NCBI GenBank assembly: GCA_028711575.1
Contig: JAQTSA010000001.1
Location: 1-52,021, forward strand
Reading direction: 5' to 3'
Length of the DNA stretch: 52,021 nt
Source of the DNA: Candidatus Omnitrophota bacterium
Lineage (GTDB): Bacteria > Omnitrophota > Gorgyraeia > Duberdicusellales > 4484-171
Part shown: piece after piece, positions 10,109-13,789 of the stretch
How positions within the stretch are numbered: the stretch's first letter is position 1
Layout of the letters: the number at the start of each line of letters is the position of its first letter
Position numbers and translations under genes: made by a program
Notes under the pieces: generated by a model
What the model was told of the DNA's origin: nothing
What the model saw: only the letters and a program-made list of their open reading frames with translations
The model's database searches: none

Positions 10109-10182
10109 GCGCCCGTGGCCCAATTGGATAGGGCATCTGGCTTCGGACCAGAGGGTTGCAGGTTCGAGTCCTGCCGGGCGCG
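10109..10182 (+). tRNA. tRNA-Arg (anticodon UCG)
   Basis: Hand-folded cloverleaf of 74 nt. Acceptor GCGCCCG/CGGGCGC, D stem GCCC/GGGC, anticodon stem TCTGG/CCAGA with loop CTTCGGA, T arm GCAGG-TTCGAGT-CCTGC, discriminator G. No encoded CCA. Confidence 0.9.
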
Positions 10183-10197
10183 CGTTTTTTGAACCGC
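10154..10197 (+). repeat. Left copy of a 44-nt exact direct repeat (tRNA variable loop to 3' end plus 15-nt trailer)
   Basis: GGTTGCAGGTTCGAGTCCTGCCGGGCGCGCGTTTTTTGAACCGC recurs exactly at 10442-10485. Confidence 0.9.
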
Positions 10198-10231: not shown

Positions 10232-10279
10232 ACACCGATGATCACAAAGTCCTCGCTTTCAGCGTGGCAGCAGATGATC
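10232..10279 (+). repeat. Module H copy 1 (hairpin bracketed by GATGATC direct repeats)
   Basis: ACACCGATGATCACAAAGTCCTCGCTTTCAGCGTGGCAGCAGATGATC. Its homolog is at 11750-11794, where the hairpin has a different sequence but the pairing is kept. Confidence 0.8.
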
Positions 10280-10440
10280 ACCAATCCGAATCTTACTTCG
10301 TTGTAAATCTTCGGGGATAACAGCGTAGTGGGTTTTTCTTCTTGAGCGAATCTTCAAACGAAGCGTCATAAGGGGCAGAGCCCCTTTTGAGGACCGAGTG
10401 CGCCATCGTAGATGGGCGAGTGCGTAAGGACTCTCGGTCC
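10280..10440 (+). repeat. Conserved ~160-nt structured element X, copy A (candidate ncRNA or miniature mobile element)
   Basis: Runs from ACCAATCCGAATCTTACTTCG to GGACCGAG...CTCGGTCC. About 94% identical to copies B and C by hand alignment, contains several hairpins and has no ORF. Confidence 0.85.
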
Positions 10441-10441
10441 T

Positions 10442-10485
10442 GGTTGCAGGTTCGAGTCCTGCCGGGCGCGCGTTTTTTGAACCGC
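10442..10485 (+). repeat. Right copy of the 44-nt direct repeat (orphan tRNA-Arg(UCG) 3' half)
   Basis: Exact duplicate of 10154-10197, directly abutting the 3' end of X copy A. No matching 5' half is present, so this is not a functional tRNA. Confidence 0.9.
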
Positions 10486-10663: not shown

Positions 10664-11587
10664 ATGAAAAAACTTATTTTTTTCTTGCTTGTGCTTTTAA
10701 CCTTGTCTCATCCGCTTTATTCTAAGTCGATTGTTACTTTTAAAAATGGCCGAATTGTTGAGGGAGAAATAGCTGAGCAGACCGATGAGTTTGTTAAGGT
10801 AATGTTTGAAGGCATTACAATAACTTGTTGGCTGGATGAAGTAGAAAGTATAGTTTCTGAAGATGGTACTCTTTTTAAGCCGCAAGTGATGTCGGCCCAA
10901 GTATCAGTGCAAGATGAGTTTATCCAAAGCCAGGAAACTCCGGAATCAGTATATTATAACCAAAATCAAGTTTCATATGAGGATAAGAATGAGTCAGAGT
11001 CAGATTCTTTAAATCGGTCCCAACAGACCTCTAGAGTTGAAATAGACCCAGAGTTATCAGAAGATGATCCGGCTTTAGATTCTACTTCCCGCAGCTTAAA
11101 GAAAACTGAGCTTCTTTTGTCGCCTGAAGAAACTAAAATCAAAAAGCTTGAAGAAAGAATTAAACTACTTTTTAATATCCTAAATTATATTGTTTGGGGC
11201 TATTGTCTTATGCGGATAGCAATTAATTTAAGGGTAGTAAACCCTTGGTGGTCATGGATACCCTTTTTAAATTTTGTGTTGACGTGTGATGTAGCTGAGA
11301 GGCCTCGAAAATGGGCTTACTCTGTATTCGCAGCAGTATTTGGTATGTTAGTTTTTCTTTTTATAAGTCAAATTTTTATTTTTATGGGTTTTTACTCTTT
11401 TATCTTGATAACTCTAATGGTCTTACCTCTTTTTATAGTCGCTATCTTTTCTCTTGTGATTTTTATACGCTTGTGGATATCTATTGTTGATCGGTTAGGA
11501 ATTTCACGGTGGTTGGTTATACTTTTGTTTGTTCCTTTATTTAATTATTTCTTTTTGTTCTATCTTGCTCGAATTAAGGTAGACTAG
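10664..11587 (+). CDS. Hypothetical secreted/membrane protein (signal peptide, acidic Ser/Glu-rich middle, C-terminal multi-TM region)
   Basis: ATG 10664 is preceded by AAGGAGG (the track's TTG 10634 start is less likely). The N-terminus MKKLIFFLLVLLTLSHPLYS looks like a signal peptide. The C-terminal third has about 4 hydrophobic helices and a WWSWIPFLNF motif. Confidence 0.7.
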   Translation: MKKLIFFLLVLLTLSHPLYSKSIVTFKNGRIVEGEIAEQTDEFVKVMFEGITITCWLDEVESIVSEDGTLFKPQVMSAQVSVQDEFIQSQETPESVYYNQNQVSYEDKNESESDSLNRSQQTSRVEIDPELSEDDPALDSTSRSLKKTELLLSPEETKIKKLEERIKLLFNILNYIVWGYCLMRIAINLRVVNPWWSWIPFLNFVLTCDVAERPRKWAYSVFAAVFGMLVFLFISQIFIFMGFYSFILITLMVLPLFIVAIFSLVIFIRLWISIVDRLGISRWLVILLFVPLFNYFFLFYLARIKVD

Positions 11588-11605
11588 TTGAGCCTTATAT
11601 TTTTC

Positions 11606-11634
11606 TTGTCGAGCGATGATAAAAATGATACAAT
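11606..11634 (+). promoter_or_regulatory. Sigma70-type promoter for tRNA-Arg(ACG)
   Basis: TTGTCG (11606-11611), a 17-nt spacer, then TACAAT (11629-11634) with an extended -10 TGA. This is the same TGnTACAAT design as at the first tRNA. Confidence 0.5.
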
Positions 11635-11649
11635 TCATGCCTTATTTAT

Positions 11650-11723
11650 GCGCCCGTGGCTCAATTGGATAGAGCATCTGCCTACGGAGCAGAAGGTTAC
11701 AGGTTCAAATCCTGTCGGGCGCG
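11650..11723 (+). tRNA. tRNA-Arg (anticodon ACG)
   Basis: Cloverleaf of 74 nt. Acceptor GCGCCCG/CGGGCGC, D stem GCTC/GAGC, anticodon stem TCTGC/GCAGA with loop CTACGGA, T arm ACAGG-TTCAAAT-CCTGT, discriminator G. Confidence 0.9.
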
Positions 11724-11729
11724 TACTTC
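11695..11729 (+). repeat. Left copy of a 35-nt exact direct repeat (tRNA-Arg(ACG) 3' half plus 6-nt trailer)
   Basis: GGTTACAGGTTCAAATCCTGTCGGGCGCGTACTTC recurs exactly at 12097-12131. Weaker similarity continues downstream (AGTAATTAAGTTA). Confidence 0.9.
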
Positions 11730-11749
11730 CTTCGTAGTAATTAAGTTAG

Positions 11750-11794
11750 ACACAGATGATCACAGAGTCCCGCTAACGCGGGAAGCAGATGATC
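11750..11794 (+). repeat. Module H copy 2
   Basis: ACACAGATGATCACAGAGTCCCGCTAACGCGGGAAGCAGATGATC. The hairpin is TCCCGC-TAAC-GCGGGA. Confidence 0.8.
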
Positions 11795-11852
11795 TCAGAT
11801 ATGTGTTATTTAGGAAATAGCCCTTTTGGGAAGAGTCAAACGATTGTCAAAC
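11791..11852 (+). repeat. Module S copy 1 (62 nt)
   Basis: GATCTCAGATATGTGTTATTTAGGAAATAGCCCTTTTGGGAAGAGTCAAACGATTGTCAAAC. About 95% identical to 12358-12419. Confidence 0.85.
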
Positions 11853-11900
11853 AGTAGTCAAACGCACCTTCGGTCCTTTGTACCTTCGGTGCTGTCAAAC
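11835..11900 (+). repeat. GTCAAAC heptamer cluster 1 (4 copies)
   Basis: Exact GTCAAAC at 11835, 11846, 11857 and 11894. The first three have 11-nt periodicity. Confidence 0.9.
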
Positions 11901-11935
11901 GTTGTTTTACGAAGTGACTAAAAGATTGAGCGATT

Positions 11936-12095
11936 ACCAATCCGAATCTTACTTCATTGCAAATCTTCGGGGATAACAGCGTAGTGGGTTTTTCTTCTTG
12001 AGTGAATCTTCAAACGAAGCGTCATAAGGGGCAGAGCCCCTTTTGAGGGCCGAGTGCGCCATCGAAGATGGGCTAGTGCGAAGCACTCTCGGCCC
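11936..12095 (+). repeat. Structured element X, copy B
   Basis: Same element as 10280-10440. Its outer stem is GGGCCGAG...CTCGGCCC, a compensatory change relative to copy A. Confidence 0.85.
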
Positions 12096-12096
12096 T

Positions 12097-12131
12097 GGTT
12101 ACAGGTTCAAATCCTGTCGGGCGCGTACTTC
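12097..12131 (+). repeat. Right copy of the 35-nt direct repeat (orphan tRNA-Arg(ACG) 3' half)
   Basis: Exact duplicate of 11695-11729, lying 1 nt after X copy B. Confidence 0.9.
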
Positions 12132-12196
12132 ATTAATAGTGATTAAGTAATTAAGTTATTAAGTGATTGAGTGAAAAGCCAAACGATTGAGCGATC

Positions 12197-12356
12197 ACCA
12201 ATCTGAATCTTACTTCGTTGTAAATCTTCGGGGATAACAGCGTAGTGGGTTTTTCTTCTTGAGTGAATCTTCAAACGAAGCGTCATAAGGGGCAGAGCCC
12301 CTTTTGAGGGCCGAGTGCGCCATCAAAGATGGGCCAGTGCGAAGCACTCTCGGCCC
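12197..12356 (+). repeat. Structured element X, copy C (not followed by a tRNA 3' half)
   Basis: About 96% identical to copy B (6 differences by hand alignment). It is followed directly by module S copy 2. Confidence 0.85.
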
Positions 12357-12357
12357 T

Positions 12358-12419
12358 GATCTCAGATATATGTTATTTAGGAAATAGCCTTTTAGGGAAG
12401 AGTCAAACGATTGTCAAAC
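12358..12419 (+). repeat. Module S copy 2 (62 nt)
   Basis: GATCTCAGATATATGTTATTTAGGAAATAGCCTTTTAGGGAAGAGTCAAACGATTGTCAAAC. Confidence 0.85.
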
Positions 12420-12466
12420 CGCCCGTCCGCCTGCGGCGAGACGAGGCTGTCAAACAATTGTCAAAC
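12402..12466 (+). repeat. GTCAAAC heptamer cluster 2 (4 copies)
   Basis: Exact GTCAAAC at 12402, 12413, 12449 and 12460. These form two pairs with 11-nt spacing, separated by a GC-rich hairpin. Confidence 0.9.
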
Positions 12467-12516
12467 ATTGTGGGGAAGGGATTTCAGGATACGAATTATT
12501 AAGATTTATTCTAAAG

Positions 12517-12800
12517 CAACTGTTTGACGCTCGCTCAGGCGAGCAGTTTGACAGGCGTATCTCGCCTGTTTGACGTGAACGTAGTGAACGTTTGACGGTC
12601 TTTTAATCGGGTGTAGGGTGAAGATAGATTTAGTAAAACGATAGTCAAACGTTCTAAGAGGAAGGGCTGAATATTTGGAAACAACTGTTTGACGCTCGCT
12701 TAGGCGAGCAGTTTGACACGCCGAGGCGTGTTTGACGGTCCCGCAAGGCGGGACCAGGTTGACGAAAGCGTAGTAAACGTTTGACGTTCGCTCAGCGAGC
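12517..12800 (-). repeat. Inverted-orientation GTTTGAC array with GC-rich palindromic spacers (two related sub-arrays)
   Basis: GTTTGAC at 12522, 12546, 12568, 12590, 12687, 12711, 12730 and 12779, plus the variant GGTTGAC at 12757 and one GTCAAAC at 12644. Most spacers of 12-19 nt are hairpins, e.g. GCTCGC-TCAG-GCGAGC, AGGCG-TATCT-CGCCT and GGTCCCGC-AAG-GCGGGACC. The starts of the sub-arrays at 12517 and 12682 are near-identical for about 36 nt. Confidence 0.9.
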
Positions 12801-12955
12801 TTTCGACTATCCTGCTGCTCTTGTATTTTTGTCCTTCTGCTGCCAATTCTCAGTAAATATATATTCTTTTTTGTTTCTGTAACTTTTTCTATATAAAACC
12901 GGAAATTGCGGTAAAATAAAATAGCAGTTTTTAGTCGATTGAACAAGGAGGGAAT

Positions 12956-13426
12956 ATGAAAGTAGTAGTTATTTATTATTCAAGGGGCGGCACGACAAAA
13001 TCTATGGCTGAGTTGATACATAAAACTATTAATTCGAAAGGTGTTAAAGCCGATATATTCGCCGTTGACCAATTTTCTTATAAAAATTTGCTTGATTATG
13101 ACGGAATTATTATTGGGTCACCGACATATTATGGTACATGTTCCTCTGAGATAAAAAAGTTGATCGATGATAGCGTGTCTTTACATAAAAAACTTGACGG
13201 TAAAGTCGGAGGCGTTTTTTCTTCTTCGGCCAACGTTGCCGGAGGAAACGAAACGACAGCCCTTTCGATATTGGAAGCTCTTCTGATCCACGGGATGATC
13301 GTTCAGGGTGACCCCCAAGGTGACCATTATGGCCCGGTTGCTGTTTCCGGTGTTGATGAGAGGTGCAACAACAATTGTGTTCGGTTTGCCGCGCGGTTTG
13401 TTGACCTTTTAAAAAAAATAGTATAA
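12956..13426 (+). CDS. Flavodoxin-like fold protein (WrbA/flavodoxin family)
   Basis: KVVVIYYSRGGTTKSMAE (FMN phosphate loop) and GSPTYYGT. SD AAGGAGGG lies upstream. Confidence 0.8.
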   Translation: MKVVVIYYSRGGTTKSMAELIHKTINSKGVKADIFAVDQFSYKNLLDYDGIIIGSPTYYGTCSSEIKKLIDDSVSLHKKLDGKVGGVFSSSANVAGGNETTALSILEALLIHGMIVQGDPQGDHYGPVAVSGVDERCNNNCVRFAARFVDLLKKIV

Positions 13427-13465
13427 TAATTGGTTGGAAATAGCTGATAGCGGAGTGAGGCATTT

Positions 13466-13789
13466 ATGGCAATAACGGTGTTTGTGACGATACCCAAAAA
13501 AGAAGCTGAGAACATGGCTAAAATGCTGGTTGAAGAACGAGTCTGCGCTTGTGTTAACATTGTAGACGGTGTTAAATCATTCTTTTGGTGGGAAGGGCAA
13601 GTTGATACTGCCGAAGAATCTCTTTTAATCATAAAAACAAAAGAGTCTCTGTTTTCCAGGTTAAAAGAAATGGTTTCGGCTAATCATTCTTACAGTGTTC
13701 CGGAAATAATATCTTTTAAGATCGATAACCTTAATCAGCCTTACTTGGAATGGTTAAATAAAGAAGCTAATGCTGCACCAAATACTTAG
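13466..13789 (+). CDS. cutA: Divalent-cation tolerance protein CutA
   Basis: CACVNI, FFWWEG and HSYSVPEI motifs. Size is 107 aa. Confidence 0.9.
   Translation: MAITVFVTIPKKEAENMAKMLVEERVCACVNIVDGVKSFFWWEGQVDTAEESLLIIKTKESLFSRLKEMVSANHSYSVPEIISFKIDNLNQPYLEWLNKEANAAPNT

Follow-up and report, generated by a model that had tools for sequence, protein, structure and literature searches.

Analyzing a 52,021-nucleotide (nt) stretch of DNA from a Candidatus Omnitrophota bacterium (assembly GCA_028711575.1, contig JAQTSA010000001.1; the whole stretch is called the window below), we found that an array of GTCAAAC/GTTTGAC heptamers located behind a tRNA-Arg gene is one of ~60 copies of a lineage-specific, non-coding, modular and rapidly reshuffled repeat family. 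The family follows one rule: an invariant heptamer, GTCAAAC in one type of block (L) and GTTTGAC, read on the same strand, in the other (R), punctuates short GC-rich hairpin cassettes. We think it probable that transcription of upstream genes continues through the elements, which would act as predicted RNA hairpin stacks, in the manner of repetitive extragenic palindromes and bacterial interspersed mosaic elements (REP/BIME), BOX elements and enterobacterial repetitive intergenic consensus (ERIC) sequences. This RNA-level reading is based on the orientation of the elements relative to genes, on GNRA loops found on one strand only, on compensatory changes in the stems and on the lack of a linked DNA enzyme.

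All heptamer positions given by the original prediction proved exact, amounting to 17 exact copies and one variant within 11835-12785. GTCAAAC starts on the + strand at 11835, 11846, 11857, 11894, 12402, 12413, 12449, 12460 and 12644, and on the - strand, where it appears as GTTTGAC, at 12522, 12546, 12568, 12590, 12687, 12711, 12730 and 12779; the variant GGTTGAC occupies 12757-12763. Comparison with shuffled sequence, which the prediction had called for, showed that the window holds 24 copies versus 5.6 +/- 2.5 in dinucleotide shuffles, and 17 of the 24 fall within less than 1 kb. The 11-bp pairs with the linkers gatt, agta and aatt and the hairpins quoted in the prediction were found as described, as was the AT-rich stretch directly after the array (12812-12955); the spacing between reverse copies was 19-27 bp. 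The window thus contains a lone L-type block behind two leader modules (M1 and M2), one canonical unit with 4+4 heptamers (12402-12596) and one truncated unit (12633-12811) with an R block of five to six heptamers.

The source genome is a 1.99-Mb metagenome-assembled genome (MAG) of 198 contigs, with a GC content of 38% and a completeness of 88%. Its contigs are labelled with C (here C6, C26, C40, C85, C136, C162 and C177, the window being contig C26), and L followed by a number denotes a locus in another assembly. Genome-wide the heptamer occurs 644 times versus ~254 expected from base composition; 325 of the 644 copies lie in 61 tight arrays, all of them intergenic, the remaining ones are near background, and ~50 looser clusters share the window's ++++---- picture. 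Matches to the L-block pattern (an insert of 15-45 nt with an 11-bp pair on either side) numbered 33 and those to the R-block pattern (three GTTTGAC with inserts of 12-30 nt) 95; reversed-pattern controls gave 0-1 matches. The original prediction had itself named a REP/BIME-type repeat as a finding that would speak against it; the genome search, which placed the array in REP/BIME-like fashion at ~60 intergenic loci, largely bore this out.

Parsing of 18 canonical units revealed a constant order of L block, spacer of 23-60 nt and R block. The L block reads GTCAAAC-RRTD-GTCAAAC, a hairpin of 19, 22, 29 or 40 nt, and GTCAAAC-RRTD-GTCAAAC again, and the R block alternates GTTTGAC with two to six cassettes. 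The cassettes fall into ~12 families, and their number and order differ between the 18 parsed units; examples are gctcgc-NNNN-gcgagca, acgcg-tactY-cgcgt, ggtctcgcc-GNRA-ggcggacca, ggcac-gWtag-tgcca and a 30-nt hairpin, and one cassette, gtgaacgtagtgaac, has no hairpin. L and R blocks also occur singly, doubled, or 260-370 bp of other modules apart, and what precedes an L block may be the M1/M2 leader, (TAGGGTN)n, (AGCTCAT)n, (GATTAAGT)n or merely a stop codon. Within the arrays the heptamer is near-invariant (325 exact versus 45 one-mismatch copies) and the linker consensus RRTD stretches the motif to ~10 of 11 positions. Same-strand spacings peak at 11 bp (78 cases) and 22 bp (72 cases); spacings of 29, 24, 26, 27, 36, 37 and 47 bp are also common, so that ~40% are off-phase, and array periods are mostly not multiples of 3. 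The spacing varies because it equals 7 plus the length of the cassette rather than following helical phase. The helical phasing originally proposed therefore holds for the 11- and 22-bp spacings only and breaks down genome-wide, where many spacings are off-phase.

Short tandem modules accompany the arrays, namely the heptads (TAGGGTN)n and (AGCTCAT)n, the octads (GATTAAGT)n and arrays of the ATTTCTAT type. They are present at many intergenic sites, e.g. at 12600-12625 and 12138-12175 of the window and at C40:2590-2650, and are reminiscent of the cyanobacterial short tandemly repeated repetitive (STRR) heptamers.

The family is confined to the species or genus, since the L pattern was absent from 40 relatives (39 genera) and the R pattern from 400 genomes of the phylum (282 genera), save one chance match. 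Scanning of ~185,000 species genomes for the L pattern yielded 26 loci in unrelated phyla, all of them plain (GTCAAACNNNN)n tandem repeats of 11 bp. Such repeats, exemplified by those of a Paludibacteraceae MAG, share the heptamer and the 11-bp period, but, unlike the family described here, they run head-to-tail in microsatellite fashion and have neither hairpin cassettes nor an opposed block; their number is that predicted by chance among all 11-bp tandem repeats, indicating that they are not homologous. The rumen Paludibacteraceae MAG JAFVBR01 carries intergenic (GTCAAAC-N3-4)n with 5-20 copies at at least 9 places on 7 contigs (L016, L026, L028, L031, L036, L040 and L041), some with ccgtcagctgacgg hairpins, and represents an independent dispersed family of 11-bp tandem repeats. 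A metagenome scan for the repeat family matched only the same species, in one metagenome of the Joint Genome Institute (JGI), and a search of the literature on the heptamer or on Omnitrophota repeats found nothing relevant.

The JGI metagenome contig (L045) reproduces window positions 11920-13786 at 99.6% identity, and the array from 12402 to 12811 is letter-identical in this independent assembly, indicating that it is not an assembly artefact. L045 lacks 11749-11919, i.e. M1, M2 and the lone L block, and carries in their place 22 nt of octamer module with short microhomology at the join. Given that four samples provide Logan unitigs matching 11765-12309 and 12429-13200 at 100%, the block at 11835-11900 included, its absence from L045 is a true polymorphism. 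Likewise, the gap orthologous to C40:4484-4950 is rebuilt from different modules in L048, and three other loci compared between strains were unchanged. No further strain variants were found via the flavodoxin gene downstream of the array among the recorded contigs.

Predicted folding and genomic context

The cassettes have a GC content of 60% in a genome of 38%. Folding of the 98 distinct cassettes of at least 12 nt gave a mean minimum free energy of -7.9 kcal/mol versus -3.07 +/- 0.19 in shuffles, and 69% of them fold at -4 kcal/mol or better. Within cassette families the stems are kept and the loops vary more, with double compensatory changes included, as in acgcg..cgcgt versus aggcg..cgcct; the M1 stems likewise exchange gtcccgc/gcggga for cttcggc/gccgaa. 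Of 22 distinct tetraloops on the GTTTGAC strand, 10 conform to GNRA (with the paralogues GTGA, GAAA, GAGA and GTAA), whereas on the opposite strand none of 21 distinct tetraloops was GNRA or UNCG (Fisher p = 5e-4 for the GNRA contrast). The gcc-ttc-ggc motifs, inspected as possible UUCG tetraloops, turned out to be triloops.

For the unit at 12395-12605 the predicted fold of the + strand reaches -80.1 kcal/mol (z = -6.0) and nests four L heptamers onto four R heptamers (H1:h4 to H4:h1); that of the - strand is less stable (-67.4 kcal/mol). In searches with the Rfam covariance models tRNAs alone reached the gathering score, and no credible match emerged in 11400-13000 when E values up to 5 were admitted.

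No open reading frame (ORF) of 120 amino acids or more contains an L block, which, together with periods that are mostly no multiple of 3, marks the repeats as non-coding. Several units begin 1-60 nt past the upstream stop codon. Between co-directional genes the sense strand carries GTCAAAC in L blocks at a ratio of 14:4 and GTTTGAC in R blocks at 26:7. Taken together, orientation with the flanking genes is 40:11 (p = 6e-5), a count in which L and R blocks of the same unit are not independent. Promoter-like sites were not enriched at the arrays (10 versus 6.4 +/- 2.6), and a terminator scan likewise gave no enrichment. Eight of 51 clusters have a tRNA gene within 800 bp, and such zones make up ~3% of the genome. 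A further setting is contig C177 (4000-14100), where six PEP-CTERM protein genes are accompanied by a PrsK/PrsR-like histidine kinase and a sigma-54 response regulator, and nearly every intergenic gap of this cluster is occupied by an array. The genome has six PEP-CTERM-like ORFs in all, each with an array within 700 bp.

Proposed action of the elements and alternative explanations

We suggest that the elements, sitting behind genes, would be transcribed together with them, and that the cassettes would fold as RNA hairpins on that strand, many with GNRA loops. L heptamers could pair with R heptamers to form a branched rod, and the AU-rich GUUUGAC linkers would remain single-stranded and exposed. 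By analogy to REP/BIME, BOX or ERIC, such structures may shield transcripts from 3' exonucleases or serve as sites of processing or attenuation. The arrays would grow, shrink and swap cassettes through recombination or slippage between identical heptamers and other short modules, and this would give rise to the variable order and number of cassettes and to the differences between strains. The original prediction had listed a multi-hairpin RNA among its candidates. Gene orientation, one-strand GNRA loops and compensatory stems favor this candidate, though in the form of a repeat module dispersed over the genome rather than one RNA gene.

Several observations weigh against action at the RNA level. 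All 10 GNRA loops stem from two or three related cassette families, DNA hairpins are also stabilized by GNRA-like loops, and G.U pairs are not commoner on the GTTTGAC strand (11 versus 10). Degenerate heptamers lack compensation in the partner block and blocks of L or R only are frequent, indicating that pairing between L and R is possible and not required. Gene orientation may be confounded with replication direction, which the fragmented contigs cannot separate from it, in which case the bias could reflect single-stranded-DNA events on one replication strand. Finally, hairpin function alone leaves the strict invariance of the heptamer unexplained. This invariance hints at a sequence-specific reader, for which a recombinase or an architectural protein acting on DNA, as suggested for dRS3 in the intergenic mosaic elements of Neisseria (NIMEs; PMC1797815), or an RNA-binding or RNA-cleaving protein may be considered by analogy. 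The motif may also bear some resemblance to IHF sites and to RNase E sites.

One alternative places the function at the DNA level, as in NIMEs: a sequence-specific DNA protein, whether recombinase or nucleoid-associated, would bind the heptamer or use it for crossover, with the hairpins as mere spacers and the arrays as recombination hot spots or architectural sites. We regard this as rather doubtful, even though conservation of the heptamer far exceeds that of any sequence in between, the RRTD linker extends the motif over nearly a full 11-bp period, spacings of 11 and 22 bp are the commonest and the arrays are dynamic between strains. The arrays also separate all six PEP-CTERM genes, recalling NIMEs at meningococcal surface-protein genes (PMC1797815). 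The large off-phase fraction of spacings argues against it, mere spacers would not be expected to have complementary stems or GNRA loops on one strand only, and the orientation bias with genes is left unexplained. Moreover, the recombinases and transposases that could serve such sites are few, and none adjoins the arrays.

A related, slightly more doubtful proposal is that the heptamer is read by a dedicated enzyme of the species, either a recombinase that would insert and swap hairpin cassettes at GTTTGAC or an endoribonuclease or RNA-binding protein that would cut or titrate on the GUUUGAC linkers of multi-hairpin transcripts. Rather than passive repeats, the arrays would in that case form an active system, and in the recombinase form a miniature cassette-array system, like NIMEs or integrons, that diversifies the regions around PEP-CTERM surface-protein genes.

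Genes for such a partner were sought in the MAG, where at the given completeness the absence of a gene is not proof. The only two tyrosine recombinases are Xer-like and neither adjoins arrays nor has heptamer ends; with just these two, an integrase/att reading of the heptamers was rejected. No match to DDE_Tnp_1 (PF01609) was found in the MAG, and its two rve (PF00665) genes are unrelated, have no heptamers at their ends and are not linked to arrays. Five matches to Y1 transposases (PF01797) were found, none with heptamer arrays within 3 kb. The best of them, a gene at C162:14500-15700 which resembles REP-associated tyrosine transposases (RAYT), comprises a 318-amino-acid frame with a partial 5' duplication and is flanked by inverted repeats of its own, GGGTCAGACCTCCACTT; these number 3-4 genome-wide and have no relation to the heptamer family. 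A gene bracketed by inverted L blocks on C40 was considered as an autonomous element between L and R, and was rejected as it encodes an outer-membrane-like protein and not a transposase. Integron attC sites have the core R'' RYYYAAC ... R' GTTRRRY. The heptamers fit this core at 6 of 7 positions only, there are no ORF cassettes and the recombinases are limited to the two Xer-like ones, so that attC sites, including clusters of attC sites lacking integron integrases (CALIN), were discarded. We know of no phage or recombinase that uses the GTCAAAC motif.

The opposed ++++---- arrangement at many loci, the high copy number in a single species and the presence/absence difference between strains would fit a non-autonomous transposon, that is a miniature inverted-repeat transposable element (MITE) or the cargo-less Tn7/Mu-like element put forward in the original prediction, the opposed clusters being multi-site transposase-binding ends. 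This explanation is quite unlikely. The flanks of 24 L blocks showed neither a target-site duplication nor a common end, the upstream flank being any of five other modules or a stop codon. L and R blocks stand alone, doubled, in any order or with other modules between them, the strain indel is a replacement joined at microhomology and not a clean insertion, and none of the transposases and recombinases of the MAG (the two rve, the RAYT-like and the other Y1 genes included) has heptamers at its ends.

The operator, iteron or response-regulator (OmpR/PhoB-type) site also suggested in the original prediction is very improbable as a feature peculiar to this locus that serves the tRNA-Arg or the flavodoxin gene: the exact 11-bp direct-repeat pairs and the position upstream of the flavodoxin gene agree with it, but the same architecture recurs at ~60 unrelated intergenic sites, mostly downstream of genes, the spacing tracks cassette length, promoter-like sites are not enriched and a unique 144-bp AT-rich 5' region stands between the array and the flavodoxin gene. 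The chance of a collapsed or chimeric repeat is next to negligible, as the independent JGI assembly and the four-sample unitigs match the region in spite of a fragmented MAG with many contigs ending in these repeats and of Logan unitigs that break inside the region.

Module B and other features of the window

Between the heptamer blocks of the window lie two copies of a 185-nt element outside the heptamer family, termed module B, and a further copy precedes them (Table 1). Its core, an element of ~95 nt, was detected at 72-81% identity in 14 of the 61 genomes of the bacterial family (G000, the source genome, included), which belong to 11 genera and carry 1-5 copies apiece; the loci of the relatives are L060-L078. 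Module B adjoins a tRNA gene in 10 of the 15 aligned loci from other genera, and often ends ~13 nt before tRNA-Ser or tRNA-Leu or follows tRNA-Arg as in the window. RNAalifold analysis of 15 module B sequences predicted a terminal hairpin, GGGGCAGAGCCCC, and a long-range helix, with compensatory changes in 7 of 10 pairs, and comparison of module B with Rfam gave no match. In the window the 3' half of the local tRNA-Arg recurs as a direct copy after each module B, being of TCG type at the first locus (10153-10197 identical to 10441-10485) and of ACG type at the second (11695-11746 similar to 12097-12148). At the first locus ARAGORN reported a tRNA-like fold, 'tRNA-Glu(ctc)', where module B meets the tRNA 3' half (10398-10471), and it is possible to draw a 7-bp acceptor stem for it. 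The same order of tRNA-Arg(TCG), module B, hairpin and tRNA-Arg 3' half recurs in a closed genome from another genus (L060), which indicates a conserved arrangement and not a fresh integration scar. Module B looks like a candidate for an undescribed tRNA-linked structured RNA motif.

The remaining features are collected in Table 1. As a side observation on the composition of the MAG, its most strongly over-represented 7-mers are GC-only words, e.g. CGGCCGG at 15x expectation, which is odd at this GC content; GC-rich repeats may account for the excess, or else the ~5% contamination that the bin is reported to contain.

Table 1. Coordinates of module B, the repeat island and adjoining features in the window (H, GTCAAAC; h, GTTTGAC)
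Feature	Position	Strand	Details
Module B, first locus	10276..10442		core 10284-10394
tRNA-Arg(ACG)	11649..11724	+	ARAGORN; Rfam 70.9 bits; repeat island begins directly after
Leader modules M1 + M2	11751..11834	+	~25-39 genome copies
M1			hairpin gtcccgc-taac-gcggga between CAGATGATCNCAGA direct repeats at 11753 and 11786
M2			tatttaggaaatagcc...gggaaga
Lone L-type block	11835..11900	+	H-gatt-H-agta-H-[30-nt hairpin]-H; polymorphic
Module B copy 1	11920..12104	+	core 11940-12050; tRNA-linked structured element, outside heptamer family
tRNA-Arg(ACG) 3' half + 22 nt, direct copy	12097..12148	+	92% identical to 11695-11746
Module B copy 2	12181..12365	+	core 12201-12311; 95% identical to copy 1
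M1 tail + M2 leader, second copy	12357..12401	+	95% identical to 11790-11834
Unit 1 L block	12402..12466	+	H-gatt-H-[29-nt hairpin]-H-aatt-H
Unit 1 spacer, 55 nt	12467..12521	+	weak hairpin on + strand; common to C6 and C85 copies
Unit 1 R block	12522..12596	+	h-[gctcgc tcag gcgagc a]-h-[aggcg tatct cgcct]-h-[gtgaacgtagtgaac]-h
Unit 2 truncated L block	12633..12650	+	degenerate GTAAAAC-gata-GTCAAAC
Unit 2 spacer, 36 nt	12651..12686	+	same family as C136, C40 and C162 spacers
Unit 2 R block	12687..12811	+	four exact GTTTGAC, one GGTTGAC, terminal degenerate TTTCGAC; cassettes gctcgcttaggcgagca, acgccgaggcgt, ggtcccgcaaggcgggacca, gttcgctcagcgagc
AT-rich 5' region of next gene	12812..12955	+	unrepeated; no copies elsewhere in genome
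Flavodoxin / FMN-reductase-like gene, downstream of array	12956..13426	+	Pfam PF03358 3e-13, PF12724, PF00258

Relation to known repeats and significance

The family is closest in kind to BOX, to NIME arrays and to BIMEs; it is a member of none of them and has no sequence relation to them, and we file it as a new variety of mosaic interspersed repeat, a kind already known. Like REP/BIME it consists of intergenic, short, GC-rich imperfect palindromes set in mosaics with other motifs, mostly behind genes. Transcribed REP/BIME copies stabilize the upstream mRNA or attenuate transcription. In contrast to REP/BIME, the repeats described here have no GTAG-type head and no single palindrome, but ~12 hairpin families that share only the flanking heptamer, and unlike in REPIN-RAYT systems no Y1 (RAYT) gene of the 88% complete MAG is flanked by heptamer repeats.

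BOX elements of Streptococcus pneumoniae and S. suis are intergenic, follow the order boxA-boxB(n)-boxC, are predicted to form stem-loops if transcribed and are thought to act on transcripts (PMC3049150). The likeness lies in a modular, non-coding, intergenic make-up, in the number of internal modules, which varies by locus and strain, and in clustering with other repeats (PMC3049150). BOX differs in that the modules here are hairpins of 12-40 nt bounded by an invariant 7-mer, with two opposed block types and no fixed A/C ends, and no insertion sequence with matching ends was found here. In NIMEs the dRS3 element is a 20-bp inverted repeat, ATTCCC-N8-GGGAAT, and the RS elements measure 50-150 bp (PMC1797815). 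Both there and here a short conserved motif punctuates diverse inserts in long, strain-variable arrays near genes for surface or secreted proteins (PMC1797815); here, however, an asymmetric 7-mer serves as the motif and separates inserts of 4-40 nt, mostly perfect hairpins. The dRS3 sequence is absent here, and the family is thus not a member of the neisserial one.

With these results the array is no longer read as a regulator site, an origin or a transposon end peculiar to its locus, and a tempting false lead is removed. The repeats also bear on assembly and typing: many contigs end in the repeat, which breaks assemblies, and the arrays differ between near-identical strains and could therefore serve as a strain marker. 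Module B, a candidate tRNA-linked motif that is conserved across at least 11 genera and has no counterpart in Rfam, may be a more general result than the heptamer family. In Omnitrophota, to our knowledge a phylum without a cultured model, an uncharacterized repeat system is now documented that follows an unusual rule, one invariant 7-mer framing ~12 hairpin families. Two independent hints, the orientation with genes and the GNRA loops on one strand only, suggest a function at the RNA level, and if a sequence-specific partner of the heptamer exists, it would represent a new recombination or RNA-processing activity.

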